Shown: positions 12,176 through 64,000 of the stretch, piece by piece
Numbering within the stretch: position 1 is the first letter of the stretch
How the letters are laid out: each line of letters starts with the position of its first letter
NCBI GenBank assembly: GCA_016186795.1
Contig: JACPKY010000002.1
Span: 350,748-414,747 of the forward strand
Direction: 5' to 3'
Origin: Candidatus Gottesmanbacteria bacterium
GTDB lineage: Bacteria > Patescibacteriota > Microgenomatia > 2-02-FULL-39-11
Length of the DNA: 64,000 nucleotides
Program-made: the position numbers and the translations under genes
Notes under the pieces: model-generated
The model's database searches: none
Seen by the model: only the letters and a program-made list of their open reading frames with translations
Told to the model about the DNA's origin: nothing

Positions 12176-12181
12176 CGCTTT

Positions 12182-12841
12182 TTATACTGCTCCTTTTCCT
12201 GTAATCATAGCTGCCGGAGTCTTTAAAAGTATCCGTATATCATACCATAAAGATCGATGATCAACATAGGCTGCATCCATTGCGATCCTTTTATCAAAAT
12301 TTACCTCTGATCTGCCTGAAACTTGCCAATATCCCGTAATTCCTGGCTTGATCGACAATACCTTTTTTACTAAAATCTTCGTCTCTGGATATTTCCGTTG
12401 CTGATTGGATAACTCATCTGGATAGTAGGCACGAGGACCAACTAAACTCATATCTCCAGTAAAGACATTCAGAAGTTGTGGTATCTCATCAAGTGAGTGG
12501 CGACGAATAAAGCGGCCGAACAGGGTAACACGCGGATCTTCTTTTAACTTATAGCTATTTTTTTTGTATTGCTCATAAAGCGATCTCATTTTCGGATCCC
12601 TCCGAAGAAGTAAATGTGCGTTCTCGACCATAGAACGGAACTTGTACATTTTAAAGCGCTTTCCATTTTTGCCTACCCTTTCAGGAGTATCAGCAAAAAC
12701 TGGTCCTGGTGATTCAAGTTTTATAAAGATTGCCAAAAGAACACAAATTGGTGTAAATATTCCCAAAAGACATGCTGATCCAAATATGTCAATCAGCCGT
12801 TTTAATACCCGATCATAATTGGCACCTGTTAAAATTTTCAT
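12182..12841 (-). CDS. Polyprenyl-phosphate sugar-phosphate transferase. This is an initiating phosphoglycosyltransferase of the small monotopic Bac_transf / PglC-WbaP C-domain type.
   Basis: One N-terminal re-entrant helix, then the KxxSPGPxF....KFRSM...[22 protein letters not shown] signature of the bacterial sugar transferase family. Confidence 0.85.
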
Positions 12842-12842
12842 A

Positions 12843-13925
12843 TCAGACTAAATGATCATTTTCTGACCGAGCAAGATTTTCAACTAATTTTTTAATTTTC
12901 GGTACAGAATTTTTATGGCAAATTAAAACAACATCATGCGTATTGATGACAAGAAATCCGTTCAAATCGATCGTTACCACCATTTGATTTGTATAGTTAT
13001 AGATAAGACTATCCTGACAGTCAGTTACGAGAACTTTCCCTTGTATAACGTTTTGATCTGGTGTTGATTGTAAGGCCTCTTTTAACGCTTCCCATGCACC
13101 AACATCGCTCCATTCCAAGTTTTCTGAGATGACCATTGCATCATTGGTTGTGATTTTTTCCAAAATAGCATTATCGAAAGAAATCTTTGAAAGCTTCGGG
13201 TAGATTTCTTTTAAAACTCGTTTGAAATTTGGTTTTCCGTAAGCGCGGTGAATTTCCTCAAGAAGGGAAAACATCTCAGGCTGGAACCGTTTATATAGAC
13301 TCCATAAGAATGAGGGTGTCGTTACAAAATACCCTACATTCCAGGCGAAATTTCCACTTTTATAGAATTTGTCGGCTGTTTCCAAATCTGGACGGTAATG
13401 AAACTCATCAAATGCATAAAGTTCAAATCCATTACTTCGTCCTACCTTTTTTCCATATTTGATCCATCCCAAATTCTGACTCGCAAATCGAGGTTTTTGG
13501 CTGATAAAAATTATCTTGTTTGGTTTTTGAGAAACGATCTTGCTGCTTTCGGAAAGAATTTTCCGAAACAGAGCGTCTTTTCTCACTAGATGATCACTCC
13601 AAACAATAGCAATTGGCTCTCTTGGATGTATTTTTGTAAGGACTGCAGAAACAAGTCCTACCGCCGGACCGACATCTCTGCTTTCCGGCTCGCAAATAAT
13701 ATGAGACGAGGTAAGTTTTGGTAACTGTTCCGCAACAATTTTTTCATATTGGCTACTTGTGGCAATATAGATATCATCCCAAGCAAAATCAGGCAGTAAC
13801 CTTTCAACTGCAAGCTGCAACGTCGATTTTTCCCCGATGACTTTCTCAAATTGTTTGGGAGAGCGTCGTCTGGACAATGGCCACAAACGAGTTCCTACCC
13901 CACCTGCAAAAATAATTGCTTTCAT
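12843..13925 (-). CDS. manC: Mannose-1-phosphate guanylyltransferase (GDP-mannose pyrophosphorylase, no PMI domain)
   Basis: MKAIIFAGGVGTRLWPLSRRRSPKQF... nucleotidyltransferase N-terminus typical of ManC/CpsB. 360 aa. Confidence 0.8.
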   Translation of the reverse strand: MKAIIFAGGVGTRLWPLSRRRSPKQFEKVIGEKSTLQLAVERLLPDFAWDDIYIATSSQYEKIVAEQLPKLTSSHIICEPESRDVGPAVGLVSAVLTKIHPREPIAIVWSDHLVRKDALFRKILSESSKIVSQKPNKIIFISQKPRFASQNLGWIKYGKKVGRSNGFELYAFDEFHYRPDLETADKFYKSGNFAWNVGYFVTTPSFLWSLYKRFQPEMFSLLEEIHRAYGKPNFKRVLKEIYPKLSKISFDNAILEKITTNDAMVISENLEWSDVGAWEALKEALQSTPDQNVIQGKVLVTDCQDSLIYNYTNQMVVTIDLNGFLVINTHDVVLICHKNSVPKIKKLVENLARSENDHLV

Positions 13926-15040
13926 ATTATAGCTTTTGAATCTCTGTAGTATTTTCCAATGAGTTCCCGAATGTTCTTCTGAAAATGTCGTTTGGAAAAC
14001 CGAGAGGCATGAGTATAACAGTCTTCAGATAAATACTCCTTTGAGTTGAAGCGTAGAACCTTCTCGGAAAGACACTCCATAGATTCCTCTTCGTACAATT
14101 CACCAGTTTTCCCCACTTGTATAGTTTCTGCCACTCCCCCTTTCTTATATGCAATCACGGGTCTTCCACACGCTTGAGCTTCAACTGCAGTAATACCGAA
14201 ATCTTCTTCTCCCGGATAGATCAAAGCTTGACAATTTTGATAATACCAACAGAGTTTTGCATCTGTCAAATCACTACCAATAAATTCAATCGTTGGGCCG
14301 GCGAGTTTTCTTAACCGCTTACTATCAATGCCAGTTCCAATAATCTTGAGTGGGAATCCAAGGTTATTGAATACCTCAATAGCATAATCAATTCGCTTAT
14401 AAGGAACAAGCCGGGACACAATGAGAAAATAACGACCTGATGATAAGGTGTGATCGGGAGTAAACGTTTTCGTATCAACTGGAGGATAGATTACTTCTGC
14501 GTGTTGTTGGTAGTATACATCAATTCTTTCTGCTACAGCTTTCGAGATAGCAATGTACTTATCAGGCCTCTTCGAAGAGATATAATCCCAGTTCCGAAGT
14601 AGTGGAGCAGCAGACCTAATAAGAAATCGTGCCAAACCATTTGCCCAACCTAATCCGGGTTCCCGGATGTACTCGTCATACCCACTCCACAGATATCTGG
14701 TAGGAGTTAAGCAGTAACACACATGAAGAGTTCCTGGCTTTGTGAGAATTCCCTTTGCCTCGGCAGAGGTAATGGTTAGAACAAGATCAAAATCATCAAA
14801 CGTCATTGATTCGTAAAAAAAGGGGAGAAGTGGGGGAAGAATTTCATGGGGAACGACATTTAGAGGCCACCTACTTAACACCGAAGTTTTGACATGAAAG
14901 ACGTCTGCATAAGGTGCCGTCTTTGGATTATAGACCGGAGTAAAAAGTGGAGCTTCCGGCCAAATCTCATGAAGAGCAAGAAGTACTCGCTCTGCACCTC
15001 CAAATTTGTTGACTCTATCATAGACAAAGGCTATCTTCAT
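13922..15040 (-). CDS. Glycosyltransferase family 4 (GT-B, retaining)
   Basis: C-terminal EEDFGITAVEAQACGRPVIA (the E-x7-E motif region) and a GT4-like N-terminus. Confidence 0.8.
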   Translation of the reverse strand: MKIAFVYDRVNKFGGAERVLLALHEIWPEAPLFTPVYNPKTAPYADVFHVKTSVLSRWPLNVVPHEILPPLLPFFYESMTFDDFDLVLTITSAEAKGILTKPGTLHVCYCLTPTRYLWSGYDEYIREPGLGWANGLARFLIRSAAPLLRNWDYISSKRPDKYIAISKAVAERIDVYYQQHAEVIYPPVDTKTFTPDHTLSSGRYFLIVSRLVPYKRIDYAIEVFNNLGFPLKIIGTGIDSKRLRKLAGPTIEFIGSDLTDAKLCWYYQNCQALIYPGEEDFGITAVEAQACGRPVIAYKKGGVAETIQVGKTGELYEEESMECLSEKVLRFNSKEYLSEDCYTHASRFSKRHFQKNIRELIGKYYRDSKAII

Positions 15041-15043
15041 GTA

Positions 15044-16162
15044 CTACTGAGTAGTATACATTGTTTCATATAAGGAACGTGTTATCTTGGCTGTTTTTTC
15101 CCAATCATAGAACGGAAGATTTTTCTTTGCCCGTGAGACAAGTTGCTTGTATTTTGCTGGCGACATTTTCAAGATCTCTACCATTTTTCCAGCTATATCG
15201 GTAGAACTATACGGATTAAACATCGGAAGTTTTTCCCCCCAGATTTCCCGAAAGACTGGTATGTCAGAAATAACTGGTAGTATATTACAGTAAAGAGCTT
15301 CGAGATTTGGAAGACCAAACCCCTCCATAAGAGATGGAAATACGAGGAAAGAACAAAATGAATAGAGGTTAAAAAGATCGTGATCATTGGCGTTTCCGAA
15401 AAAAATAACCGCGTCTCCCAAACCTAATGACTTCGCATACCGTTCTAGTCTTGGATAAAAATAGAAATCAGAGCCCGCACAAACGAGTTTAATCAGAGAA
15501 TGTTTTCGAACGATTTTCAGTGCTTGCAAAAGACGCTCCAGATTTTTGTGGGGATATGCATTTCCCACGTATAAAATGTACTTATTGGGAAAAAGCCGCA
15601 CCGGAGTTTCTGTATCAACGGTTTTTTGAAAATGTGTATCAAGGGCGTCGTACGTTACGAACAGTTTTTCCGAAGGTACGTGATAATGATCATATACCTC
15701 TGCTTTGGTAGTATTTGATATTACTGTTATTGCGGATGCTCTCCTAACTGCTAGTTTTGTAGCAAAGGAATAGCCCAGACGCTTTATTCGGTAGAGAGGT
15801 TTTGGTAGAGTACTTGCTCGACCGGTATCAAAGTGATCCAAAATAAGATCGTGAATGGTAAGTAAGTATTTCTTGGGGTAACTAATTGGAACATTAAAAT
15901 AGGGGAAATGGACAACATCGAGATGATCTCTTAAAAGCACGTATGGTACAACAATCTGCTCGGTAATGGTATGCCAGGAAATATCGAGTAATTTCTTGTG
16001 CCAGTGACGACTTACTGGTTGGAATAAATCCCAATCTTTTTTCCGGAAATACACAATGTATTCATCTGATACGTCAAGCTTTTGAAGCGCCCGAAGAATG
16101 TTTTTGAGATATCTTCCTACACCTGTCTGAGTATATAATCTTGCATCGATTCCAATTCTCAT
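15044..16162 (-). CDS. Glycosyltransferase family 4
   Basis: MEGFGLPNLEALYCNILPVIS motif region. GT-B architecture. Confidence 0.8.
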   Translation of the reverse strand: MRIGIDARLYTQTGVGRYLKNILRALQKLDVSDEYIVYFRKKDWDLFQPVSRHWHKKLLDISWHTITEQIVVPYVLLRDHLDVVHFPYFNVPISYPKKYLLTIHDLILDHFDTGRASTLPKPLYRIKRLGYSFATKLAVRRASAITVISNTTKAEVYDHYHVPSEKLFVTYDALDTHFQKTVDTETPVRLFPNKYILYVGNAYPHKNLERLLQALKIVRKHSLIKLVCAGSDFYFYPRLERYAKSLGLGDAVIFFGNANDHDLFNLYSFCSFLVFPSLMEGFGLPNLEALYCNILPVISDIPVFREIWGEKLPMFNPYSSTDIAGKMVEILKMSPAKYKQLVSRAKKNLPFYDWEKTAKITRSLYETMYTTQ

Positions 16163-16165
16163 GGG

Positions 16166-17137
16166 TTACCTATATTGAAGAAGGGCGAAATACTTTTTAA
16201 TTGAAATAACAGCAAAAATACAGTATGTTACAACTTCCGGATATTTTGTCCTATAGTGCTTCTTGTAGAATATTTTCATAACATCAAAACGAGCCTCTGT
16301 TGCCTGTTTTTGAATAGATACATCTGCCTTAGAAAGAAATCGTGAATGGGTTTTGATCCCACTTGACGCACCTTTTAGATGAATAATCTCGCATGATGGT
16401 TGATAAAGGATCTTCCACCCTTTCTCCTTCAATGTATAACAAAGATCAATATCCTCACCATACCAGAAATAATCCTCATCGAGCCATCCGACTTCATCAC
16501 CTGCCTTTTTACGTACGAGCATAAAGGCTCCACAACAGCTATCGACCTCGTGAAGAATATCCATATTTTGATATCCTAAGTGATACCCGTTAAACAATAA
16601 ACTTTTCGGAAAACACCTTCCCAACCCTACAAAGTGACAGAATGCATTCCAAGCCGTTGGAAAACCTCGGTGACTTGCATCGTCAATTTCCCCCGACAAT
16701 AACTTCACCTTGCACGTCACAATACCTGCGTCGGGATGTGACTGTAATGTGTCTAATGCACATGCAAGAGATTCTTTGGAGACTATGGTATCGGGATTGA
16801 GAAGGAGAATATACGAACCTTTCGCACGTCTTATTCCTCGATTATTCGCTTTTGAAAAACCTTCGTTTGAAGAGTTTGCGAATACCTTCACCCAGGCATA
16901 TTTTTTCTTTATTAATATGGCTTCTTTCCCGTAAGATGCATTGTCAACAACGATTACTTCGTAATCATTCTTTGTTAATGAGGACTTTGCAATTGAATTT
17001 AAACAATTTTCAAGGAGATGAAATGAATTATAGTTCACAATAACAATAGAGATCTTCAAATTTTTCTTCATACTTGAAACCAAAAATTTACATATGATGA
17101 GCTGCTTCTTTATAGATCCGATCAAGTTTGTTCGCAA
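16166..17137 (-). CDS. Glycosyltransferase family 2 (GT-A). The probable true start is near 17071 (MKKNLKISIVIV).
   Basis: ISIVIVNYNS...VIVVDNAS (DxD-type GT2 N-terminal signature). Confidence 0.8.
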   Translation of the reverse strand: MRTNLIGSIKKQLIICKFLVSSMKKNLKISIVIVNYNSFHLLENCLNSIAKSSLTKNDYEVIVVDNASYGKEAILIKKKYAWVKVFANSSNEGFSKANNRGIRRAKGSYILLLNPDTIVSKESLACALDTLQSHPDAGIVTCKVKLLSGEIDDASHRGFPTAWNAFCHFVGLGRCFPKSLLFNGYHLGYQNMDILHEVDSCCGAFMLVRKKAGDEVGWLDEDYFWYGEDIDLCYTLKEKGWKILYQPSCEIIHLKGASSGIKTHSRFLSKADVSIQKQATEARFDVMKIFYKKHYRTKYPEVVTYCIFAVISIKKYFALLQYR

Positions 17138-18278
17138 TCATTTCCCAGTTGAATTGTCTTTCAACAAGCTCACGACCATTTTTTGCAAGTTTCCTATATA
17201 ATGAAGGGTTTGTAAGAACCGTAACAGTTTCACTCGCTAGTACTTTCACATTGTCAGAAATTATGGCGTGTTTATTGTGAACTGCACCTAGCCCTTCAAT
17301 ACCAGTGGTGGTTGTCACAACAGGAAGTCCAGTTGCCATCGCCTCGAGAATCTTATATCGTGTTCCCCCGGGGCCATAGATTGGTGCAAGAAGTACATCA
17401 GACTTTATATAGGCCTTGCGAATGTCTTCCATATCTTCAGTTATTCGTACGGAACTTGATTGGTAAGAGCGAATTGATTTCGGAGGATGTCTACCAATAA
17501 TCCATAAAGTCGCCTTGGGAATTCTTGAAACAATCTGGGGCCAAATGTCTTTCATAAGAATTGAAACAGCTTCACGATTTTGTAGCCATTTAAAATTCCC
17601 TACAAACAATATAGTTGGCCGTGTGGAGTCTATTTTATCTTTCCTCTTTTCAAAAAATGATACGTCAACCCCATTGGGCACAAGATCCACTGGGAGATTC
17701 GGAATGAGACTTTGCATGATTTTCTTATCAGGAAGGGACATTGTGACAACTCGTGTTGCTTTCTGCCAGAACCGTTTCTCCCAAAATTTTATTTTTACTA
17801 CATCCCACTCCATTAAAAGCTTCAGTAGAAGGAACTGAATGCTTTTGGTGTAATGTTTATATACCAAATATTCTATCGTCTGCTCTGCCAGAATCGTCGG
17901 AATTGTATTCGGAGGAATATTGGGCATCACATAAAATGTTTCAGCATGAATAATATCAAAGCGTTGCCGCTCCAACTCTTTTGCAATAGCTTTTTTTACT
18001 TCTTGTATGTAATACATACACACCACAAGAGGATAGTAAGTAACAGCAGACAGAAACAAACTCTTCGGTGCCCATGGGGGTCTTTTTTTGAATACCTTTA
18101 CATCAATACAATATTTTTTGAGACGTGGAATGTACTCTTTTTCCTGTTCATCTCGGATAAAAGAGTAGAGAGTTATTTCATGTTTTTTTGAAAGGTTCTT
18201 TAATAGATTGTATGTCCGAATTTGTCCACCAGACCAGATCGGATACGGCAGATACGGTGTCAACATGAGAATTTTCAT
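17088..18278 (-). CDS. Glycosyltransferase family 4
   Basis: MKILMLTPYLPYPIWSGGQIRTYNL... N-terminus and a C-terminal ILEAMATGLPVVTT motif. Confidence 0.8.
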   Translation of the reverse strand: MKILMLTPYLPYPIWSGGQIRTYNLLKNLSKKHEITLYSFIRDEQEKEYIPRLKKYCIDVKVFKKRPPWAPKSLFLSAVTYYPLVVCMYYIQEVKKAIAKELERQRFDIIHAETFYVMPNIPPNTIPTILAEQTIEYLVYKHYTKSIQFLLLKLLMEWDVVKIKFWEKRFWQKATRVVTMSLPDKKIMQSLIPNLPVDLVPNGVDVSFFEKRKDKIDSTRPTILFVGNFKWLQNREAVSILMKDIWPQIVSRIPKATLWIIGRHPPKSIRSYQSSSVRITEDMEDIRKAYIKSDVLLAPIYGPGGTRYKILEAMATGLPVVTTTTGIEGLGAVHNKHAIISDNVKVLASETVTVLTNPSLYRKLAKNGRELVERQFNWEMIANKLDRIYKEAAHHM

Positions 18279-18286
18279 GGCTATGC

Positions 18287-22328: not shown

Positions 22329-22351
22329 ACAAAGGGGCAGGATTTAGGCGA

Positions 22352-22981: not shown

Positions 22982-22987
22982 AATATA

Positions 22988-27377: not shown

Positions 27378-27380
27378 AGG

Positions 27381-29727: not shown

Positions 29728-29751
29728 GTATTTTTATACTACAATGATACC

Positions 29752-33053: not shown

Positions 33054-33056
33054 TAT

Positions 33057-34830: not shown

Positions 34831-34850
34831 AAACAGTAAATTAAATCCCT

Positions 34851-43171: not shown

Positions 43172-43175
43172 AGCA

Positions 43176-45235: not shown

Positions 45236-45238
45236 AAC

Positions 45239-47942: not shown

Positions 47943-47947
47943 ATAAT

Positions 47948-51934: not shown

Positions 51935-51945
51935 ATGATTCTCTT

Positions 51946-53955: not shown

Positions 53956-53975
53956 ATTTTTTCCTGGCTGTTTGT

Positions 53976-55439: not shown

Positions 55440-55464
55440 AAATTTTTAATTTTTATAAACGTAA

Positions 55465-56259: not shown

Positions 56260-57320
56260 AAAACATCACCGAGAATAAACGCTTCATCTTTTTTTAATGT
56301 TCGCTTTAATTTCTTTCCTATCAATTCATCTACTTGATAGGGATGGAGTCCGCCTCCAGGAGATTTAAATGCAATATCATTTATTTCCAATACATGCCAT
56401 TTGGGTAGATTTTTTGTGGCAACAATCTTTTTCTGCATCTTTATGATGGCCTTTTTCTCACTCTCGTATACCTTTTTTACTCCATCTCCTAAAGCAGTTT
56501 TGACGCGCCGAAGATCTCGTACAAGTTTTCGCATTCCAATCGGCTCAAGAGAAAATACGTGATCAGTGCCTTTCATAACACGGTTGAGGGTAAAGTGCTT
56601 CTCAATAATACGTGCCCCCAAAACAAATGCAGCAACAGACATGGCAATGCCATTATCGTGTGCAGAAAATCCTATGATATTTTCTGGAAAATATTTATGA
56701 TATGAACGTATCACATGAAGATCAAGCTCTGAAAAGTCACTTGGATAACTTGCGGTACATTGAAGAATTGCAAGTTGTGGGTTTATAGACATAATAGATT
56801 CTTGCGCACGTCTCACATCATCAAGCCTTGCCCCGCCTGTTGACATTATCATCGGTTTACCTGCCTTTGCAATGTAGCGAAGAAGAGGAAGATGGACAAC
56901 ATCTGCTGAGGCAATCTTAAATGCTGGCATGGATAAGTCTTCTAAAAAATCTACGCTCTCAAAATCAAATGCTGTGGCAAAAAAGATTAAGTCAAGCTTT
57001 TTGGCATAATCTTGGAGTTCTCTATATTGAGATTTATCAAATTCAAGCGCTTCCCTGTGTCGTCCGTATGTCGGACCAAAAGCATTTTCCGAATTATAGA
57101 CTGAATTATAAAATTCTTTTGTATAGAGTTTTTTATTGTGACGCTTTTGAAGTTTCACCGCATCTACACCACACTCTTTTGCAGCTTTAAAAAGCTGTTT
57201 GCATATTTCTACACTTCCTTGGTGGTTGTGACCTATCTCTGCAATAACAAAACAGTCACTTGATTCAGAGATTGTATAATTTTTGATCCGTAAGATTCGC
57301 TTCTTGTTTTCCCCAACCAT
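56256..57320 (-). CDS. NeuB/PseI/LegI-family ulosonic acid synthase (PEP-dependent condensation; TIM barrel plus C-terminal SAF/antifreeze-like domain)
   Basis: DCFVIAEIGHNHQGSVEICKQLFKAAKECGVDAVKLQKR, and the C-terminal SAF domain (KSPGGGLHPYQVDELIGKKLKRTLKKDEAFILGDV). Confidence 0.9.
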   Translation of the reverse strand: MVGENKKRILRIKNYTISESSDCFVIAEIGHNHQGSVEICKQLFKAAKECGVDAVKLQKRHNKKLYTKEFYNSVYNSENAFGPTYGRHREALEFDKSQYRELQDYAKKLDLIFFATAFDFESVDFLEDLSMPAFKIASADVVHLPLLRYIAKAGKPMIMSTGGARLDDVRRAQESIMSINPQLAILQCTASYPSDFSELDLHVIRSYHKYFPENIIGFSAHDNGIAMSVAAFVLGARIIEKHFTLNRVMKGTDHVFSLEPIGMRKLVRDLRRVKTALGDGVKKVYESEKKAIIKMQKKIVATKNLPKWHVLEINDIAFKSPGGGLHPYQVDELIGKKLKRTLKKDEAFILGDVL

Positions 57321-57357
57321 ATATCAAACTGCTATTATAACAGATAATACGGGTATT

Positions 57358-58425
57358 CTAGGTTATCCCCTTAAAAAGTCTATCCAGAGCTGCAAATGCC
57401 CCCTTTCTGTATATCTTATTTGGATTTCCTGGGGGGAAAGGTTTACGCGTTTTATCTAAGGCCTCTTTGAATGAATCGACTGAGTGAATATCCACAACAA
57501 AACAATAAGGCTGAAGAATGGAGGGAAGCCTTTCGTAGAGTCTTTTCGTAACCAATATATAACATTTGCAAGCAATTGCTTCTATTATCTTTGTCTTAAA
57601 TCCCGTACCAAAGTCAGAAAATATTGCGATTGCCCTTGCTTCTCCAAGTAAATCAAACGGTCTCTCAACAACTCCACTCAATTTTACTCTTTTCGGTAAC
57701 GTTTTCCGAAATACATTACTCCCGGTCATTGAAAATGTCCAATCATATTTCTTTGAACCCAATTTCTCTACAAGCTTTATAAAAAATCTTGCTGAGTCTT
57801 TAATGAACTCATTGGGCGATGTCGACATGTAACAAATACACCTTCTTTTTTTCTTTCTGTTTCGGGGAATAAATCGTTCATAGGATTTTGGGAGAAAATA
57901 AGGAAGATATACAATTTTCTTTGCCCCCAGAAATTGCCAGTATTCTTGGGAATCCCACTCTGATATTGATAAGATTTTATCAGAATTTCTTGCGCAGATA
58001 ATATCATCTTTCAATCGTAAAAATCCTTCTTCGAGAGAGCGTATATTTTCCTTTAAAATATTTACAAAACTCCGAGAAAAGGAAACAATGCCTCTTGAGA
58101 GAATCTGATGTAGTCTGTGATAAAATTCTGCGTTGTGCACACGAATATAAAGACGGCAACTTGGAAAATACTTTCTTATATACATCATGGATTGTGGATA
58201 TCGGGAGTATTCGAAGAAGATATGTGTATATTTCCCAAATTGAATGTCTTCTATATTTTCCATCAGAAGTTTATCGGACCGCTCTCTCACCCAATATTCA
58301 TCAACTGGTATTTTCCTTGCTTTAAAATATTCAGTTCTCCCTCGTACGTCTTTCGTACTCCCTAAAAACATATTACTTGGCTTTGTCAATGGTTTATCAA
58401 ATATATGAAGGACTCTCGTTTGCAT
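57358..58425 (-). CDS. Hypothetical protein, possibly a divergent GT-B glycosyltransferase
   Basis: C-terminal ARAIAIFSDFGTGFKTKIIEAIACKCYILV resembles the donor-binding C-terminal motif of GT-B enzymes. Confidence 0.35.
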   Translation of the reverse strand: MQTRVLHIFDKPLTKPSNMFLGSTKDVRGRTEYFKARKIPVDEYWVRERSDKLLMENIEDIQFGKYTHIFFEYSRYPQSMMYIRKYFPSCRLYIRVHNAEFYHRLHQILSRGIVSFSRSFVNILKENIRSLEEGFLRLKDDIICARNSDKILSISEWDSQEYWQFLGAKKIVYLPYFLPKSYERFIPRNRKKKRRCICYMSTSPNEFIKDSARFFIKLVEKLGSKKYDWTFSMTGSNVFRKTLPKRVKLSGVVERPFDLLGEARAIAIFSDFGTGFKTKIIEAIACKCYILVTKRLYERLPSILQPYCFVVDIHSVDSFKEALDKTRKPFPPGNPNKIYRKGAFAALDRLFKGIT

Positions 58426-58429
58426 ACAA

Positions 58430-60265
58430 TTAATTGCTTCCTTTCTCTACATACCAGTTCCCAATACTTATTCCATCAACCCAACCGTTTATAAGATGTT
58501 CTAAGCAATCTTTGGGAGATGCGACAATTGGTAATCCATGCCTGTTGAAAGATGTATTAAGAAGTACTCCGATACCGGTCTTTCGCTTAAATTCAATCAA
58601 AAGATTGTACACCCATGGATGGAAATTTTTATCCACTACCTCAGGACGCATCGTACCATCGACATGTACAGCTGCAGGGATTGTTTTTTTAGCAAAAGTA
58701 TTTGCCTTGACGATGAATGTCATATATTTATAATTTGCATCTCCTGACCAATATTTATGAGCATCTTCCTTTAGTAGAACTGGTGCAAAGGGAACAAACA
58801 GTTCTCTCCCTTTGAGGATTCGATTAATTCTATCCTTTATCGATATGTCTCGTGGATCAGCAAGGACAGATCGGTTCCCAAGAGTACGGGGCCCCATTTC
58901 AAGTCTTCCTTGGAATGTACCAATTACCTTTCCCTTTGTCAGTTCTTGAGAAAGATGTGATACTGAACCGTTTCTTATCGTTATTGGATATTTCTGTCTG
59001 AAAGATTGAAGGGTTTTCTCAATCTCAGAATCAGTGAATTGTGTCCCCAAAAATGGATTCTCCCAAGCAAGTGAAGAAGTTATAAATCCTTCCTGATACA
59101 GTGCTTCAAGTGCAGCACCAGCTGCAAGACCACTGTCTCCACTATCCGGATAAACAAAAAAAGCTGACGGAGTAAGTCTATTTTTAATAAGTGAATTTCC
59201 TTTCACATTTAGAAATACTCCTCCTGCCGCTGCAATATTTTTGCTCTTTGTTAAATGCATGGCGTCTTTTACGTATTCGAACATACATCTCTCACATACC
59301 TTTTGGGCAAAAAACGCAAGATCTTCTCGGGAGTACGTTTTAAGTAATCTCTCAAAATCTTCTGCCTGAGACACAGATGAAAGTGGATTTGGAACTTTTT
59401 TATCGGGATGGGCAAGATTGAAACTGCGCCACTTCCAGGCAATGTGTGACTTCAATCTCCCATCATGACTTGAAACTATATGATGAAAAGGGTTTTTCTT
59501 CCCTCGAGAGCTCCCAAATGCAGCAAGACCCATTGTTTTATATTCACCATCAACCGGAATAAATCCAAGAGCTTCTGTGACTGCTTGATAAAAAGCTCCA
59601 AGACTATCATCTGCTTTTGATGCCCGCTGAAGGACCATTTGGCCATCTGAAAATCCTTTATAGATTGTTCCGCTCAAGCCATCACCTTTTCCATCAAGAG
59701 TTACTACGCATGCATTTTTAAAGCCAGAGAGCCGAAATGTAGAGGAGGCGTGTGCACGGTGATGGGAGATGTAGTAATAAGAAATCCGAGGATGGAAAAG
59801 ACCTATTTCAGAGAGGAATTTCTCATTGAAAAGATAATGCCGTTTGTAGTATTTTCCCCAATTCTTTTTAATAAGTTCTTCTAATCCTATTCTCCTTTTA
59901 TCATGCATTCCCCATCCAAAATCTTCTAATAAATTTTTCCTCATCCAATCATGAATGATTTGCATTTTGGAGACAATTCTTTTCTTTCTGCCATAAACAT
60001 CAACGATAATACTTCTTTGATATTTGGGATAAAATATACTACTTGAAGTAAATGCAACGATAGAAATATCGGCAGGTGTGAGATTACAAAAGTCTAAAGC
60101 CGCAAGAATAGACTTTTTCGGAAACCCATAATAGTGTTTTATACGAGATATCCTCTCCTCCTGAATAGAGAAGAGAATTCCTTTGGGTGAACAGACACTA
60201 ACAGATGCATCGTGCGCCCAGTGTATTCCTAGTGCATATGGGCCATTGTTATTTACTCGGATCAT
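58430..60265 (-). CDS. NodU/CmcH/TobZ-family carbamoyltransferase (O-carbamoylation of a sugar)
   Basis: N-terminus ALGIHWAHDASVSVCSPKGILFSIQEERISRIKHYYGFP matches the Carbam_trans_N pattern (L-G-x-x-x-HD-[SA]-[AS] ... EER..R.KH...FP). 611 aa. Confidence 0.85.
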   Translation of the reverse strand: MIRVNNNGPYALGIHWAHDASVSVCSPKGILFSIQEERISRIKHYYGFPKKSILAALDFCNLTPADISIVAFTSSSIFYPKYQRSIIVDVYGRKKRIVSKMQIIHDWMRKNLLEDFGWGMHDKRRIGLEELIKKNWGKYYKRHYLFNEKFLSEIGLFHPRISYYYISHHRAHASSTFRLSGFKNACVVTLDGKGDGLSGTIYKGFSDGQMVLQRASKADDSLGAFYQAVTEALGFIPVDGEYKTMGLAAFGSSRGKKNPFHHIVSSHDGRLKSHIAWKWRSFNLAHPDKKVPNPLSSVSQAEDFERLLKTYSREDLAFFAQKVCERCMFEYVKDAMHLTKSKNIAAAGGVFLNVKGNSLIKNRLTPSAFFVYPDSGDSGLAAGAALEALYQEGFITSSLAWENPFLGTQFTDSEIEKTLQSFRQKYPITIRNGSVSHLSQELTKGKVIGTFQGRLEMGPRTLGNRSVLADPRDISIKDRINRILKGRELFVPFAPVLLKEDAHKYWSGDANYKYMTFIVKANTFAKKTIPAAVHVDGTMRPEVVDKNFHPWVYNLLIEFKRKTGIGVLLNTSFNRHGLPIVASPKDCLEHLINGWVDGISIGNWYVEKGSN

Positions 60266-60268
60266 TCG

Positions 60269-61915
60269 TCATAAATCCTCATGAGGAAATACAAATGGTG
60301 TACCTTTGAGTATTCCGTCACACATAGTTGTAAGACCTGGATATTTTCCTGTTAGCAAATCATGTAGTCCCTCTAAATTCAAAGTAAACGTGAACTTTTC
60401 TTTGGATTCAATGAAAGGTAGTGGAATCATACGTCTGAAAAAGAAATGAAATGCATATTTTTTTGCCATATTTACTTGACGATCTGTTAATTTCTTCTTA
60501 AACGGTAGTTTGTCAAGAATCTTTTTGTACTCTTTTTTACTTGTTACGTCAATAGAAAAGCCTTTATTTCTGATCCATGACTCTCCACATACGATCATGG
60601 GTATTCCAAGTGGGGAAAGTTCAATACCGGTTTTTGTATTGTAGATAATAACGGCATTACACTTTTCCATAACCGCATAAGTACTGATTGTGCTTTCAGG
60701 AGGAATAATTTTTATGTTGGAGGCAAGATGAGGATAGTATTTTTTTATTTCTGAAAGTAATGGCTGTCGAGAAGGAACCAACCCATGTATTTCTGCAGGA
60801 TGAATTCGTATAAGAAGTTGAATACTTTTCCTTTTTGAAAAATATGAAATTGTTGTCAAAACCCAATCTATCATATTATCAAAAGCAACCGAATTGTAAT
60901 GAAGACGTGCATCCCACATAACGTTTGTCAACACCCCAATACAAGGCTTTTTAAAATCTATACCAATGTTGTACTCTATCTTACCAACGTCCTCTAATGG
61001 ATTTTCATGAAACCATATCCAATCAGAAGTACCAGAACGTCTTGAGTAAAGATACGTATCTAACCGTTTTTCAAGTTTTGGAGTTAATTGTAAGTTCTTC
61101 CATACATCCGCTTTCTCCTCTAACATCGTATGATGGTACGTATCACCATGACTAAAAATGAATGTATGGCGCCTGTATGCTGGGTTCCAATTAACAATAC
61201 GTACTTTTTCCCTTCGACAAATCTCGCCAATAATACCTTGTGGGATATAAATACCATGATGAAAACAGGCTATATCATACTTTTTTTTCTTAAGTAAATT
61301 CTGCAAAGCATACGCAGAAAGAAATCCTGCATGGATGTATCTTTTTAGAACATCATTTCCAAAACGCTCTCCTTCAAGATCACCGCGGCCAAAATAGCGA
61401 AGAGTTCCCGCATATGCATGTTCTCCTAAAGCAACATGCTTATACATATACTCATCAACATGAGGCAGTGGCACATTATATGCGTTTGCTCTTGCTTGCT
61501 TTTGCTCTTTCTTACCAACTAACTCACTGTAGTAATGAATAGGAAGACCAAGAGGAGTAAAAACTTTTTTGCCGGCACTTAAACAGGAATCACAAATATT
61601 CAATTGACCTTTTTCTACTAGTTTTTGGGGATCAATTTTTGCAATTTTCGTCATTTGGCATGCCGGTAGAAATTTATCGCAAAGAAGTATATCAACACTG
61701 GCTCCCCGAAGAGTAAGGGAAACGGCCAAAGTACTTTCAAGTACTGTAGCATGGTTATACCCTCCAAGACTTGTTGCTATAAGGACGCGAGGACTTTTTG
61801 CTCTCTTTTTGGCATCTTCCCAATAGGATTTATTTTTTGCAATTATTTTTAACCAATCTACATGGAGATTTTTTCCTCGTCTGTTAAGTTTGGGAAATAT
61901 GGGTATGTCTACCAT
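60269..61915 (-). CDS. KpsC/KpsS/TagF-like GT-B-fold protein (paralog 2)
   Basis: IRIHPAE ... STISTYAVMEKCNAVIIYNTKTGIELSPLGIPMIV matches the Capsule_synth-like HP...v.t.nS/T.G.E.....G.P core. Confidence 0.4.
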   Translation of the reverse strand: MVDIPIFPKLNRRGKNLHVDWLKIIAKNKSYWEDAKKRAKSPRVLIATSLGGYNHATVLESTLAVSLTLRGASVDILLCDKFLPACQMTKIAKIDPQKLVEKGQLNICDSCLSAGKKVFTPLGLPIHYYSELVGKKEQKQARANAYNVPLPHVDEYMYKHVALGEHAYAGTLRYFGRGDLEGERFGNDVLKRYIHAGFLSAYALQNLLKKKKYDIACFHHGIYIPQGIIGEICRREKVRIVNWNPAYRRHTFIFSHGDTYHHTMLEEKADVWKNLQLTPKLEKRLDTYLYSRRSGTSDWIWFHENPLEDVGKIEYNIGIDFKKPCIGVLTNVMWDARLHYNSVAFDNMIDWVLTTISYFSKRKSIQLLIRIHPAEIHGLVPSRQPLLSEIKKYYPHLASNIKIIPPESTISTYAVMEKCNAVIIYNTKTGIELSPLGIPMIVCGESWIRNKGFSIDVTSKKEYKKILDKLPFKKKLTDRQVNMAKKYAFHFFFRRMIPLPFIESKEKFTFTLNLEGLHDLLTGKYPGLTTMCDGILKGTPFVFPHEDL

Positions 61916-61916
61916 C

Positions 61917-62819
61917 TTAGGGAAAAAACCTTTTTAGAAATAAAATCAATCTATTCATGTATCCCTTTTTCCGTACGAAATACCAAAACGCCATATAAAA
62001 TCCGATGAAAAAATTGGAATAGATGTGACGTCGGGGAAATAAACTGATAAAAACGATAAGTCCGATCATGTGAGTAAGTACAGGAAACCTCGCCCAAAAG
62101 GGTATTTTCCCATCTTCAAACAAACTCAAGTATTGATGGTGTATTTCATCATCAGCCGTACGTTTTAATTGAAAAAAACGTCGTTTCCACAGATATTTTT
62201 TTACTTGCTTAAACTGTCCCCAAACTGATAATTCCATCAGTACAAGTCTATCTGGCATTAGACAGTAGGGGTAAATACTTGTTCTTCTTAGTATATCTCT
62301 CCGCATAAGGCCATACGCCATATTGCCAACGTTGACCATCTTTTGACAAACAAGTTTTACTCTCTTCATCTTCGGAACTCTTGCTGTATCGAAATCGGAA
62401 AATCGGTATGAGAGTACTTTCCCTTTTTCATTTATAGCCTTTGTACGAGGATATGCAAGAACAACATCTCTATTTTCCTCGAGTATCAAAACTAGGATTT
62501 TAACAAAATTCTTATGCCAGATATCGTGATTTGAACCCCACATAAAGTATTCTCCATGAGTATAGTTAAAGACTTTGCGAAAATTTAAAATCGCACCCCT
62601 GTTTTTATCGCTTTGCAAAATCTTAATTCGTTTATCTTTCCTTGCAAACTCTTTACAAATCGAAAGAGTTGCATCGGTTGATGCATCATCTGAAACGATG
62701 ATTTCAATATGTTTGTATGATTGGGTAACTAATGATTGAAGCGCCTCTCGAATATATGGTTCTCCGTTATACGCTGGTATACCAATTGAGACGAGTTTTT
62801 TGTTATTAATTTTTTTCAT
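61917..62819 (-). CDS. Glycosyltransferase family 2
   Basis: VSIGIPAYNGEPYI...EIIVSDDASTDAT signature. Confidence 0.8.
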   Translation of the reverse strand: MKKINNKKLVSIGIPAYNGEPYIREALQSLVTQSYKHIEIIVSDDASTDATLSICKEFARKDKRIKILQSDKNRGAILNFRKVFNYTHGEYFMWGSNHDIWHKNFVKILVLILEENRDVVLAYPRTKAINEKGKVLSYRFSDFDTARVPKMKRVKLVCQKMVNVGNMAYGLMRRDILRRTSIYPYCLMPDRLVLMELSVWGQFKQVKKYLWKRRFFQLKRTADDEIHHQYLSLFEDGKIPFWARFPVLTHMIGLIVFISLFPRRHIYSNFFIGFYMAFWYFVRKKGYMNRLILFLKRFFP

Positions 62820-64000
62820 TTATCATTCGTAAACTTTCGATAATATCGGAGGCAGCCTCACCAGCTGAGGTATTGAGACCATAGGGCTGAATATAATTTC
62901 GAATAAAAAGATTTTGTGATTTTTTTAGTTCGTTACCCATCTTTTCTATTCTCTTTATATGCGCTATTGCTTGACCGATGGTATTGGCTTGCAAGTAAAT
63001 ATTTTTCTTTAAGAGATATTGAAAATGAAGAGCTTTTATGGCATTTGTACGTTCATACTCGTGAGGCCGAAGTGCAATAACCGGTTTTCCTATAATGACT
63101 GCATCAATCATTGCGCTTGTATTTATTCCAATAGAACAGATAGCATACTTTAAACTGAGACAAAATTCTTCTATCGCCTCTTTTGTGTCAGCTATTTCAA
63201 AGGAGCGAAAAAGCACTTTCACATTCCTGAGCTTTATTTGTTTAAATATCTCCTGATTTGCTCCATGAGGTCGTACGAGTAGAATTAAATTGCGAATTTC
63301 TTGATTGGGAGATTTTGCAATTTCTCTTGCAAGATTTTTAACAAGCCATGTCTCATCAAATGCAATATTTGCAGAAGATCCAAGATAGATAATATACTGC
63401 TGCCCCTCTTTGATACCTAATTTTCCAAAAAACTGTTTCCGCGTCTGGATCTTTTTACCGATTGTAAACCATTTGTCAAAAAGCGGCGCTCCCATGATTT
63501 TAATTAAAGACGAGGACACTTTATGGATCTGAGTTAATTCCTTCTTATGGATAGAATTCCAGGCTAAAAAAGTTCCTGGTCTCACATGAAAAAGTCCTTT
63601 TGTTGTGAGGTTATCCCAGCTATGAATAGCTATCACTGTCGGAATATTGAGTGCATTTGCTGCTTTTATATATTCGACTTCTTCCGAATAACGCATATTG
63701 ACCGGAGAAGCAACGACCACATGAGGTTTTTTTCCAATTAACTCCTTCATAATCTGACTATCAGGAGGTGCACTTTTTTCCAAAGAATGTAATACTCTCT
63801 CTATGAAATTCGAAGTTATGTATCTCTTAATAAGGCTCAATCGAAAGAGGAAACGAAGTATTCTCGGTTGGTACCCCTCCCATCTTTTAAGGTAAAATCC
63901 TGGATAACTTTTTTGTTTACAGTAGTATATATATGTTAATAACTCTCGGGACGGAAAAAGAATTTTTCTCCATAAATCGTCTCTTCGTTTAAGCCAACCA
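62806..64000 (-). CDS. KpsC/KpsS/TagF-like GT-B-fold protein (paralog 3). The N-terminus lies beyond the window end. The frame is open from 63840 to 64000 with no stop, and the listed TTG at 63840 is not the real start.
   Basis: LLVRPHGANQ ... KYAICSIGINTSAMIDAVIIGKPVIAL core. In-frame translation continues without a stop to position 64000. Confidence 0.4.
   Translation of the reverse strand, partial: GWLKRRDDLWRKILFPSRELLTYIYYCKQKSYPGFYLKRWEGYQPRILRFLFRLSLIKRYITSNFIERVLHSLEKSAPPDSQIMKELIGKKPHVVVASPVNMRYSEEVEYIKAANALNIPTVIAIHSWDNLTTKGLFHVRPGTFLAWNSIHKKELTQIHKVSSSLIKIMGAPLFDKWFTIGKKIQTRKQFFGKLGIKEGQQYIIYLGSSANIAFDETWLVKNLAREIAKSPNQEIRNLILLVRPHGANQEIFKQIKLRNVKVLFRSFEIADTKEAIEEFCLSLKYAICSIGINTSAMIDAVIIGKPVIALRPHEYERTNAIKALHFQYLLKKNIYLQANTIGQAIAHIKRIEKMGNELKKSQNLFIRNYIQPYGLNTSAGEAASDIIESLRMINEKN

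Follow-up and report, generated by a model that had tools for sequence, protein, structure and literature searches.

The genomes of bacteria in the Candidate Phyla Radiation (CPR, or Patescibacteria) are about 1 Mb in size, and many basic biosynthetic pathways are missing from them. Why would such a cell devote at least 6% of a contig to a single glycan locus? The question is raised by a 64,000-nucleotide stretch of DNA from Candidatus Gottesmanbacteria (Patescibacteria group, Microgenomates group; contig JACPKY010000002.1, positions 350,748 to 414,747), which is called the window below and whose numbering is used throughout. From the DUF4012 gene at position 10241 onward, the locus covers at least 69.5 kb and about 60 genes on a contig of 1,118,283 bp, and this outlay argues that the sugar coat has a central part in the life of these cells, which are ultra-small and probably attached to a host. 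Judged by its gene content, the system is very probably of a known general kind, namely a Wzx-dependent surface glycan locus with nonulosonic acid decoration. Our more specific reading is that of a composite supercluster for a cell-envelope glycan, organized in two layers of a core assembly line and a set of decorations, and we lean towards it with measured confidence.

Extent, packing, and assembly of the locus

The original prediction, made from the letters of the window alone, held that positions 12182-64000 encode about 45 co-directional, glycan-related genes with almost no intergenic space. The map of open reading frames (ORFs) gives 44 ORFs in this interval, and the positive gaps between them total only 246 bp in 51.8 kb. 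Co-directionality applies to the 42 ORFs on the minus strand and fails for two plus-strand genes (29752-31425 and 34851-35747). Likewise, a Pfam scan of every ORF returned glycan-related matches for 40 of the 44, and the other four, encoding proteins of 433, 669, 548, and 456 aa, have no Pfam match above the family cut-off. The predicted enzyme inventory was recovered in profile searches. It comprises a Bac_transf phosphoglycosyltransferase (PGT), a ManC-type NTP_transferase, a Wzx flippase, a DegT aminotransferase, a Hexapep (LbH) acetyltransferase, four methyltransferases, a two-domain carbamoyltransferase, a NeuB synthase with a CTP_transf_3 synthetase, and two transketolases, one split and one full-length. 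The glycosyltransferases (GTs) of families GT2 (seven), GT4 (seven, one of them marginal), GT10 (one), and GT11 (one) make 16, and there are seven polytopic GT-C-like proteins, which carry Wzy_C, PMT_2 (two proteins), DUF2079, DUF6798, and DUF2142 domains or, in the case of the 669-aa protein, about 15 transmembrane (TM) segments.

In longest-ORF coordinates, 22 of the 43 junctions overlap, the gap is at most 10 bp at 35 of them, and the largest gap is 39 bp. Overlaps of 4-50 bp had been read throughout the locus. Tight packing stands, but the longest overlaps (-50 and -116) are artefacts of choosing the longest-ORF start, because separate gene calls on identical contigs give overlaps of only 1-32 bp, with gaps of no more than 57 bp. 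The extreme packing of the locus is real.

Transcription runs from 64000 towards 1. The gene at 12182-12841, from which the locus had been said to start, does encode an initiating PGT, but because the genes lie on the minus strand it comes last rather than first, as the final glycan enzyme gene at the 3' end of the array. The downstream boundary is the DUF4012 gene, which adjoins RecO; further 3' lie a class II aminoacyl-tRNA synthetase gene and a block of the dcw (division and cell wall) type with MraZ, MraW, a penicillin-binding protein, and a Mur ligase. Because of the two plus-strand genes, each of which stands alone, the minus-strand genes fall into three or more blocks. The first of these begins at 79.8 kb or beyond and ends at 35728 (38 genes seen), the second runs from 34830 to 31409 (four genes), and the third runs from 29727 to 9683 (17 genes, including DUF4012 and RecO). 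Transcription in one or a few polycistronic units, as originally proposed, would fit this spacing and is plausible.

The locus continues past the window, as had been anticipated. Two contigs (L001 and L091), both 100% identical to the window where they overlap it, carry the array on to coordinate 79769, where their edge falls inside a DegT gene. They add at least 15.8 kb and 15 further co-directional glycan genes, which encode a C-methyltransferase, two GT2 enzymes, another BFO_1060-like protein, an epimerase, two methyltransferases, two DegT aminotransferases, a PglD-type N-acetyltransferase, a PglF/PseB-like dehydratase with a CBS domain, a NeuC/PseG-like protein, a second NeuB, a second CMP-synthetase, and a 480-aa protein without a family. 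The last of these (L091, 2554-3996) and the 548-aa protein at 60269-61915 are two soluble proteins of the locus with no family, PDB, or NCBIfam match.

Positions 4241-64000 are covered at 100% identity by overlapping contigs, which come from at least five sequencing runs independent of one another. The assembly is therefore not chimeric, and the change in base composition within it is genuine. No tRNA or Rfam family was found in the window. Recent internal duplication as the source of the size of the locus was ruled out, as all paralog pairs within it are at most 40% identical.

Conserved core and variable modules

A comparison of synteny with related genomes, which had been suggested alongside the original prediction, revealed a core gene order conserved in the Microgenomates. 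A 1046-aa membrane protein (18287-21427), in which a Wzy_C (WaaL-like) half is joined to a GT39/ArnT-like half, was searched against one genome per GTDB species. This returned more than 566 relatives, of which the best 80 loci were compared over 10 kb on each side of the Wzy_C gene; 36 loci carry both flanks, and the counts given here and in Table 1 refer to these. The 80 loci belong to Gottesman-, Curtiss-, Woese-, Beckwith-, Roizman-, Pace-, and Chisholmbacteria and to unnamed Patescibacteria. Their shared order is [Wzx-GT2-GT4]-GT2-PMT_2-MT-GT4-GT4-Hexapep-GT2-Wzy_C-GT4-GT2-GT4-GT4-ManC-PGT-DUF4012-RecO, where MT stands for methyltransferase. Five genes (GT4d, Hexapep, Wzy_C, GT4c, and GT4b) occur in all 36 loci, followed by PMT2a and GT4e (35 each), GT2a (34), GT4a (33), and PGT (30), always in the order of the window. 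Wzx lies at the limit of the 10-kb flank and was seen in 12 loci. By this synteny, the core is an ancient set of about 20 genes that covers 10241-28283 and 35728-38841.

The two parts of the core are contiguous in the closest relatives, L007 and L016, in which Wzx-GT2-GT4 stands directly beside GT2c, whereas in the window a 7.4-kb segment intervenes. This insert encodes a DUF2079 protein, a DUF6798 protein (plus strand), a DPM1-like GT2, a split transketolase, a dehydratase, and the methyltransferase MT2 (plus strand). None of the 36 loci contains DUF6798, either transketolase subunit, the dehydratase, or MT2; DUF2079 is present in six and the DPM1-like GT2 in two. Similarly, the genes upstream of Wzx have no counterpart within the 10-kb spans examined in relatives. 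Around the insert (28.2-35.7 kb), a search for signs of mobile elements found no meaningful flanking repeats, tRNA, Rfam match, or integrase or transposase domains.

The GC content falls from about 0.40 to about 0.35 near 26 kb. The housekeeping flank has a value of 0.405 and the first core block (12182-28283) one of 0.384, compared with 0.354 for the second core block (35728-38841), 0.358 for the insert, and 0.368 for the extension upstream of Wzx. The homologs of core genes are CPR proteins, and for one extension gene the nearest named homologs belong to Omnitrophica, Bacteroidia, Elusimicrobiota, Anaerolineales, and archaea. These comparisons suggest with good probability that the locus is composite, consisting of a class-wide conserved core and of modules without counterpart in the spans examined in relatives.

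Some homologs carry labels from outside the CPR. A close homolog of the Wzy_C half (51% identity) lies on a 3.3-kb contig labelled 'Candidatus Omnitrophota' (L057, JAFGHG010000049.1), and many other homolog contigs are labelled 'uncultured Gammaproteobacteria' (binchicken metagenome-assembled genomes). These labels are probably binning or placeholder-taxonomy errors and not true occurrences beyond the CPR.

Predicted assembly, transfer, and decoration of the glycan

The core may be read as a Wzx-dependent assembly line linked to undecaprenyl diphosphate (Und-PP), for which we infer the order of steps and the acceptor as follows. The small PGT would prime the lipid carrier on the cytoplasmic side, and about ten GT4 and GT2 enzymes would lengthen the chain with GDP-mannose from ManC and with other donors. 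The WcaF-like acetyltransferase and a methyltransferase would modify the chain, after which Wzx would flip the glycan outward. Outside the membrane, the Wzy_C (WaaL-like) plus GT39-like enzyme would pass the glycan to an acceptor, with the second PMT_2 GT-C enzyme and the DUF4012 protein assisting. The second layer, of lower GC content, would supply decorations and consist of the insert (28234-35747) together with everything upstream of Wzx (38838 to at least 79769). It would contribute two different NeuB/CMP-synthetase pathways, three BFO_1060-like candidate transferases, the GT10 and GT11 enzymes, C- and O-methyltransferases, the carbamoyltransferase, three aminotransferases, and four further GT-C-like enzymes fed by a DPM1/GtrB-like GT2.

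The fusion enzyme is the only Wzy_C-domain protein in the locus, and the Wzy_C family spans both ligases and polymerases. Its probable start is the ATG at 21418, giving 1043 aa instead of the 1046 aa of the longest ORF. The Wzy_C domain occupies aa 229-446 of the N-terminal half (64.5 bits; Pfam cut-off 31.7). At aa ~620-780, most homologs (those scored are 52-61% identical) carry PMT_2 at 37-49 bits (cut-off 26.1) or PMT at 28-39 bits (cut-off 22.7). A PDB sequence search with the fusion protein gave nothing useful. An AlphaFold (AF2) model built from 42 sequences (pLDDT 78, pTM 0.64) was compared with known structures using Foldseek. It matched ArnT (5EZM) with a target TM-score of 0.60; STT3/OST, PglB, ALG9/12, AftA, and Pmt4 with a probability of 1.00; and WaaL (7TPG_B) with a target TM-score of 0.61, an E value of 3.8e-3, and a probability of 1.00. 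In Gottesmanbacteria-like loci the enzyme is encoded by one ORF of about 1040 aa, and in other Microgenomates lineages by two adjacent ORFs, often with a 4-nt overlap, of ~525-555 aa (fusion residues 4-520) and ~478 aa (residues 545-1041). This Rosetta-stone pattern of fusion and splitting argues that the Wzy_C and GT-C activities work together.

Residues R239, R289, H192, and D424-N425-x9-G435-x2-G438 are invariant in 75 sequences. Also invariant are D571 and D579, which lie right after the first helix of the GT-C module and are candidates for the acidic catalytic residue of its first external loop. Among the 75 Microgenomates Wzy_C proteins, residues 419-438 read E-S-T-D-N-D-Y/F-L-R-x-L-G-E-T-G-x-L-G and are invariant or nearly so.

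The reading of the fusion that we prefer, by analogy and as a possibility short of probable, is one of 'prime and ligate'. The GT-C half would place a sugar derived from a polyprenyl phosphate on the acceptor, which may be a surface protein, a lipid, or a wall component, and the Wzy_C half would then transfer the Und-PP-oligosaccharide onto the primed acceptor. This would mirror Brucella WadA, a bimodular ligase (GT121 + GT25) whose appended glycosyltransferase adds the sugar that receives the O-antigen (PMC10920833). WadA was the only bimodular ligase found in the literature searched. Both proteins join a Wzy_C-type ligase to a glycosyltransferase thought to prepare the acceptor (PMC10920833). 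However, the partner in WadA is a soluble GT25 in the context of lipopolysaccharide (LPS), whereas the partner here, a membrane-embedded GT-C (GT39/ArnT-like), would act outside the membrane on a lipid-phosphate sugar, and there is no LPS context.

The DUF4012 protein travels with the PGT in relatives and belongs to the glycan system. It has a single TM segment near aa 27-50, and the remainder is predicted to lie outside. Its model (pLDDT 82.5, pTM 0.78) consists of an N-terminal TM helix, long helical hairpins, an alpha/beta domain at aa ~245-470, and a C-terminal beta-sandwich. The alpha/beta domain of this predicted model matches structures of LytR-CpsA-Psr (LCP) proteins with moderate scores. 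As in LCP proteins, an N-terminal TM segment is combined with an external domain, and the gene sits in a glycan locus; one LCP protein, LcpA of Actinomyces oris, glycosylates a surface protein. In contrast to LCP proteins, the long helical hairpins and the beta-sandwich are extra, and sequence similarity was not detectable. The 40 family members scanned showed no LytR_cpsA_psr domain at E <= 10, the family profile gave no LCP match against PDB sequences, and a PDB sequence search yielded nothing useful. The invariant residues of the domain (D258, E260, R262, R319, D320, D355, R383, and R408) are candidates for a counterpart of the Arg/Asp site that binds pyrophosphate and Mg in LCP proteins. 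The family is enriched in CPR and Gram-positive bacteria, with a copy in a Bifidobacterium exopolysaccharide cluster (Meheust et al. 2019, PMC6744442). Only tentatively, then, do we propose from the model that DUF4012 is a divergent LCP-like glycan ligase; such a phosphotransferase would anchor the glycan to peptidoglycan or protein.

An ulosonic-acid module had been predicted, and the window does contain one. This NeuB cassette (49237-57320) has the order NeuB-short-chain dehydrogenase/reductase (SDR)-aldehyde dehydrogenase (ALDH)-(GT-C-like membrane protein)-CMP-synthetase-transketolase, and none of its enzymes reaches an NCBIfam equivalog cut-off. On an unrelated metagenome contig of the Joint Genome Institute (L097, 2177-10184), radical SAM-NeuB-SDR-ALDH-CMP-synthetase-transketolase genes follow the same order at 44-55% identity, with the GT-C-like gene missing, and a CMP-synthetase-transketolase pair is found on L095 (91-2792); the cassette is therefore recurrent. 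As a speculation, the transketolase could supply an unusual aldose to NeuB, and the SDR and ALDH could oxidise CH2OH to COOH. The only partners of legionaminic or pseudaminic acid (Leg/Pse) type within the window are a LegC-like DegT (384.5 bits; cut-off 420) and a weak LegB-like SDR. A second nonulosonic-acid set lies at ~70-76 kb and contains PglF-like, DegT, PglD_N + Hexapep, and Epimerase_2/GT28_C-like genes (Pfam), and by these assignments the genes past the window would make up a complete canonical nonulosonic-acid pathway. The two NeuB/CMP-synthetase sets are only 37% identical to each other. The set past the window resembles the Leg/Pse pathways of Campylobacter, Helicobacter, and Tannerella in its NeuB, CMP-synthetase, LegC/PseC-like aminotransferase, 4,6-dehydratase, and PglD-like and NeuC/PseG-like proteins. 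The in-window cassette differs from them, as a transketolase, an aldehyde dehydrogenase, and an SDR occur together with NeuB in no nonulosonic-acid pathway description found.

Candidate transferases for such sugars are the BFO_1060/TIGR04396-like proteins, of which there are two in the window and a third just beyond it, all below the family cut-off. BFO_1060 is the Tannerella forsythia ortholog of experimentally implicated Pse/Leg transferases, and the Tannerella glycan ends in a Pse/Leg derivative that is added by a transferase of the BFO_1060/Tanf_01245 type encoded beside the CMP-nonulosonic acid genes (PMC5420450). The 456-aa protein at the window edge, whose complete gene is visible on L001 (6090-7460, 100% identical to the window), is by a weak match a distant relative of these transferases.

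Fucosylation had also been predicted, and the family membership of the GT10 and GT11 enzymes agrees with it. The supply of GDP-fucose is less clear, as no Gmd or Fcl in the window reaches threshold; the only dehydratase/epimerase in the window scores 62.8 bits for Gmd (cut-off 415) and 75 for Fcl (cut-off 500). The genes for GDP-fucose could lie elsewhere in the genome. An aminated and acetylated glycan was proposed as well, and DegT and LbH enzymes are both present. However, the LbH protein is probably an O-acetyltransferase (WcaF family NF007797, 103 bits; cut-off 192). It is not an obvious partner of DegT because of its O-acetyl type and its position in the conserved core, and a PglD-type N-acetyltransferase lies outside the window. 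For the GT-C-like enzymes, the 240-aa GT2 at 31409-32131 is the best candidate for a polyprenyl-phosphate sugar synthase, with best PDB sequence matches to Dol-P-Man synthase (5MLZ; 1.9e-14, aa 3-227), GtrB (5EKP), and ArnC. Of the GT2 enzymes encoded next to GT-C genes, GT2b, GT2c, and GT2f do not resemble such synthases and match generic GT-A enzymes only.

Among known systems, the locus resembles Wzx/Wzy O-antigen and capsule loci (Salmonella/E. coli rfb, S. pneumoniae cps). These likewise combine a Bac_transf PGT, a series of GT2/GT4 enzymes, nucleotide-sugar genes, a MOP flippase, a Wzy_C protein, and a low-GC variable portion, and the Gram-positive ones encode an LCP protein in the locus. 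They typically span 10-30 kb, a fraction of the length found here, and they differ in further respects: in our locus no Wzz/CpsCD was found, the Wzy_C module and a GT39-like GT-C are fused or encoded side by side, GT-C-like enzymes number seven, and the central part is syntenic across a class instead of hypervariable. General protein O-glycosylation systems of the PGT-GT-flippase-Wzy_C type include the slg clusters of Geobacillus and Paenibacillus (WsaP/WsaB). The Neisseria pgl system (PglL) and S-layer O-glycosylation in Tannerella forsythia are similar to our locus in having a PGT, GTs, a flippase, and a Wzy_C-domain oligosaccharyltransferase; in contrast, the transferase-like proteins here fall under the family cut-offs, and neither a ligase-GT39 fusion nor DUF4012 is reported there. 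Finally, ManC-type GDP-mannose, a DPM1-like synthase, several external PMT_2/GT-C enzymes, and a monoderm-type cell recall actinobacterial Pmt (GT39) with Ppm1 and the GT-C enzymes of mycobacterial lipomannan, lipoarabinomannan, and arabinogalactan. Here, however, such components are embedded in a Wzx-dependent Und-PP pathway and include DUF2079, DUF2142, and DUF6798 proteins.

Several points weigh against the composite supercluster reading or limit its reach. 'Variable' denotes absence within 10 kb of the Wzy_C gene and not absence from the genomes of relatives, and the size of the locus, which reaches to at least 79769, is a lower bound. The fusion protein of the window has no Pfam PMT_2 match at E <= 0.01, and only its homologs reach that family. 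At the position of the catalytic-type His of WaaL, for which we take the motif to be H[NSQ]x9Gxx[GTY], an invariant Asp is found (75 of the 75 sequences with a residue at this column; the register was set by eye). If this register is right, simple membership in the WaaL group is weakened, and the module may not work like WaaL. One GT2 resembling a polyprenyl-phosphate sugar synthase stands against seven GT-C-like proteins. No Wzz or GNVR domain of a co-polymerase was detected in any window ORF or in the 15.8-kb extension, and no separate Wzy was found, so that the product may be either a polymer or an oligosaccharide. Scans for sigma-70 promoters and intrinsic terminators across 9-46 kb gave counts at or below chance (56 vs 53.7, 43 vs 62.7, 13 vs 14.6 and 11.7 in shuffled expectation) and are therefore uninformative on operon structure.

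The original prediction envisaged one very complex glycoconjugate. This is only one possibility, as the locus is composite and has two candidate end-transferases and seven GT-C enzymes, so that more than one product may be made. Indeed, it might encode several independent adjacent glycan pathways in place of one assembly line, for example protein O-glycosylation (PGT, GTs, and Wzx, with Wzy_C as an O-oligosaccharyltransferase), decoration of wall or lipids by GT-C enzymes from polyprenyl-phosphate sugars, and nonulosonic-acid modification of pilins or an S-layer. The presence of both the Wzy_C-GT39 fusion and DUF4012, the seven GT-C-like proteins, the low mutual identity of the two NeuB/CMP-synthetase sets, the retention of the core without extension genes within the 10-kb spans of relatives, and the strand switches that cut the locus into blocks all speak for such an arrangement. 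It is nevertheless an unlikely one in our judgement, as a single PGT and a single Wzx were found across 69.5 kb and the packing is continuous throughout, including at Wzx and the first extension gene, where 4 bp are shared. In addition, the three BFO_1060-like transferases are soluble and would therefore act on a lipid-linked intermediate at the cytoplasmic side, as in Tannerella. Rather unlikely, too, is a Gram-positive-type, Wzy-dependent capsule or secondary wall polysaccharide, in which Wzy_C polymerises, DUF4012 attaches the polymer to peptidoglycan, and the GT-C enzymes add side-branches. Polymerases also fall within Pfam Wzy_C, the His-to-Asp difference is compatible with a non-WaaL activity, DUF4012 with its LCP-like fold matches lies beside the PGT much like cps2A in pneumococcal cps loci, and CPR bacteria are thought to have a Gram-positive-like envelope (PMC6744442). 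Yet no CpsC/CpsD or Wzz-type co-polymerase was detected in the window, about ten core GTs are many for one repeat unit, and coupling of Wzy_C to a GT-C resembling protein mannosyltransferases is not a known feature of capsule loci.

Two further explanations have very little probability left. The drop in GC content near 26 kb and the many phyla among homologs of an extension gene might betray a chimeric assembly or a recently acquired mobile element on a CPR backbone. This is largely refuted by contigs of independent runs that match the window at 100% across every junction, by the lack of an integrase, transposase, tRNA, or flanking repeats, by the low identity of paralogs, and by the 4-bp overlap of the genes at the junctions. 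It is just as improbable that the locus is an LPS O-antigen locus with a WaaL ligase acting onto lipid A-core, as the Wzy_C domain, the WaaL fold match, and the NCBI name 'O-antigen ligase family protein' might suggest. Lipid A and core genes are absent from the window, Asp stands in place of the motif His in a module fused to a PMT-like GT-C, and CPR bacteria are without Gram-negative envelope signatures (PMC6744442).

On the composite reading, which we thus retain, the conserved core is a concrete entry to CPR cell-envelope chemistry, with its shared gene set, its Rosetta-stone fusion, and a role that DUF4012 might play. Surface differences between strains, and hence host range and phage defence, may be determined by the variable extension, and the transketolase-containing NeuB cassette may encode a sugar not yet characterised. 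The literature searched contained no description of a Microgenomates glycan cluster or core, of a locus on this scale relative to its genome, of ligase-GT39 coupling, of an LCP-like DUF4012, of a NeuB cassette with a transketolase, or of CPR nonulosonic acids; among these topics, it covered only the enrichment of DUF4012 in CPR bacteria. It is conceivable, though on balance doubtful, that the Microgenomates as a class make an undescribed envelope glycoconjugate, with a coupled or fused ligase-GT-C, a highly divergent DUF4012 branch of LCP type, and strain-level decoration modules, of which one, the recurrent NeuB cassette, would make a new kind of CMP-activated ulosonic (possibly ulosaric) acid. 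If so, the specificity of these episymbionts for hosts or phages could depend on the variable coat of glycans that results.

Gene list and neighbouring features

Table 1. Genes of the locus within the window, listed by coordinate (core, 10241-28283 and 35728-38841; insert, 28234-35747; extension, from 38838). Scores are Pfam bit scores unless another family is named; TM, transmembrane segments; SAM, S-adenosylmethionine-dependent; n/36, loci of relatives with the gene.
Feature	Coordinates	Strand	Evidence
DUF4012 protein, 644 aa	10241..12175	-	one N-terminal TM, remainder extracytoplasmic; adjoins PGT in relatives
Small monotopic initiating PGT, 219 aa	12182..12841	-	Bac_transf 205 (cut-off 27); one TM; 30/36; NCBIfam EPS_sugtrans 254 and WbaP 247, both under cut-off
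Mannose-1-phosphate guanylyltransferase, ManC type without phosphomannose isomerase domain	12843..13925	-	NTP_transferase + ManC_GMP_beta-helix; TIGR01479 235, profile positions 2-350 of 467
GT4a	13922..15040	-	Glycos_transf_1 79.5; 33/36
GT4b	15044..16162	-	Glycos_transf_1 98.8; 36/36
GT2a	16166..17137	-	Glycos_transf_2 80.2; 34/36; gene callers start at 17071 (301 aa)
GT4c	17088..18278	-	Glyco_trans_1_4 80.5; 36/36
Bimodular Wzy_C/WaaL-like + GT39/ArnT-like membrane enzyme, 1046 aa	18287..21427	-	Wzy_C 64.5; ~18 TM; 36/36
GT2b	21387..22328	-	Glycos_transf_2 81.3; 29/36; PDB: generic GT-A matches only
Hexapeptide acetyltransferase, WcaF-like (O-acetyl type)	22352..22981	-	Hexapep 43.4; 36/36, median identity 58%
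GT4d	22988..24118	-	Glycos_transf_1 124.7; 36/36
GT4e	24115..25269	-	Glycos_transf_1 108.9; 35/36
SAM methyltransferase MT1	25241..26011	-	Methyltransf_11 44.6; 20/36
GT-C glycosyltransferase PMT2a (PMT_2 type)	25980..27377	-	PMT_2 39.2; ~11 TM; 35/36
GT2c	27381..28283	-	Glycos_transf_2 109.8; 28/36; PDB: generic GT-A matches only
DUF2079 polytopic GT-C-like protein, first insert gene	28234..29727	-	DUF2079 181; 6/36
DUF6798 polytopic GT-C-like protein	29752..31425	+	DUF6798 62.4; ~13 TM; 0/36
GT2, DPM1/GtrB/ArnC-like, 240 aa	31409..32131	-	Glycos_transf_2 79.2; 2/36
Split transketolase, C-terminal subunit	32124..33053	-	Transket_pyr 120.7 + Transketolase_C 96.5; 0/36
Split transketolase, N-terminal (thiamine pyrophosphate-binding) subunit	33057..33959	-	Transketolase_N 154.6; 0/36; callers start at 33866 (269 aa)
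NAD-dependent sugar 4,6-dehydratase/epimerase	33844..34830	-	Epimerase 171, GDP_Man_Dehyd 164; 0/36; best NCBIfam LegB-like, 157 (cut-off 475)
SAM methyltransferase MT2	34851..35747	+	Methyltransf_23 72.1; 0/36
GT4f	35728..36729	-	Glycos_transf_1 95.6; 23/36; adjoins GT2c in L007, L016
GT2e	36726..37583	-	Glycos_transf_2 46.8; syntenic in L007, L016, L033, L054, L076, L081
Wzx-type MOP flippase	37543..38841	-	Polysacc_synt 63.3, Polysacc_synt_3 62.5; ~10 TM
DegT-family sugar aminotransferase, LegC-like, first extension gene	38838..39968	-	DegT_DnrJ_EryC1 409; LegC family is TIGR04181
GT-C glycosyltransferase PMT2b (PMT_2 type)	39965..41566	-	PMT_2 53.2
DUF2142 polytopic GT-C-like protein	41606..43171	-	DUF2142 75.9; ~11 TM
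SAM methyltransferase MT3	43176..44279	-	Methyltransf_11 59.7
GT2f, two C-terminal TM	44279..45235	-	Glycos_transf_2 88.1; PDB: generic GT-A matches only
GT10-family (fucosyltransferase-type)	45239..46183	-	Glyco_transf_10 34.6 (cut-off 23.9)
DUF268-type SAM methyltransferase MT4	46180..47088	-	DUF268 67.9, Methyltransf_11 29.3
GT11-family (alpha-1,2-fucosyltransferase-type)	47073..47942	-	Glyco_transf_11 116.9 (cut-off 23.9)
433-aa soluble protein, candidate nonulosonic-acid transferase	47948..49249	-	TIGR04396 surf_polysacc 91.7 (cut-off 125), BFO_1060 63.6 (cut-off 200); no Pfam match; PDB sequence search nothing useful
Full-length transketolase-family enzyme, cassette	49237..51180	-	Transketolase_N, pyr, C domains; NF004559 342 (cut-off 488); closest PDB match human-type transketolase, 1e-64
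CMP-ulosonic-acid synthetase (cytidylyltransferase), cassette	51158..51934	-	CTP_transf_3 76.2; PseF 142 (cut-off 205)
669-aa polytopic GT-C-like protein inside cassette	51946..53955	-	~15 TM; weak DUF6541 (18, cut-off 29), DUF6798
NAD(P)-dependent aldehyde dehydrogenase, cassette	53976..55439	-	Aldedh 513.9; no equivalog reached; L097 counterpart 55% identical
Short-chain dehydrogenase/reductase, cassette	55465..56259	-	adh_short_C2 126.7; L097 counterpart 44% identical
NeuB-family ulosonic acid synthase, cassette	56256..57320	-	NeuB 257.5 + SAF; NeuB_NnaB 299.5 (cut-off 399.65), PseI 245.6 (cut-off 340.25)
GT4g, divergent GT-B (GT4-like)	57358..58425	-	Glyco_trans_1_4 27.6 (cut-off 27)
NodU/CmcH-type O-carbamoyltransferase	58430..60265	-	Carbam_trans_C 185.8, Carbam_trans_N 112.5
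548-aa soluble protein	60269..61915	-	no significant Pfam, NCBIfam, or PDB match
GT2g	61917..62819	-	Glycos_transf_2 104.9
456-aa gene, 3' part in window, reaching 64176	62806..64000	-	BFO_1060 family 27.6, weak

Within the locus, the start codons of the divergent gene pairs DUF2079/DUF6798 (29727-29752) and dehydratase/MT2 (34830-34851) are separated by just 24 and 20 bp. Any promoters must overlap each other or sit in coding sequence. TATAAT-like hexamers occur inside both spacers. This arrangement hints at leaderless mRNAs or mRNAs with very short leaders.

At the downstream end, RecO (9683-10240, minus strand) is a 185-aa protein with RecO_N and a truncated RecO_C. Its gap to DUF4012 is 0 bp, and the adjacency is kept in many Microgenomates loci. 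A perfect sigma-70 consensus (TTGACA, a 16-nt spacer, and TATAAT; 12 of 12 matches) lies at the 3' end of RecO, at 9682-9709 on the minus strand. It is the sole 12/12 match in the 37 kb scanned and adjoins a 128-bp gap before the class II aminoacyl-tRNA synthetase gene. If it is a promoter, the glycan/DUF4012/RecO block would end there on its downstream side.

Further downstream, the gene at 5468-7006 (minus strand) encodes a 512-aa protein of unusual architecture, in which an N-terminal PilM/actin-like ATPase domain is followed by one TM segment near aa 364 and, at the C-terminus, by LytR_C. The gene is flanked by a metallo-beta-lactamase-fold gene and the MraZ/MraW/penicillin-binding protein/Mur ligase block. 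The protein may be an FtsA-like factor of cell division whose wall-binding domain lies outside.

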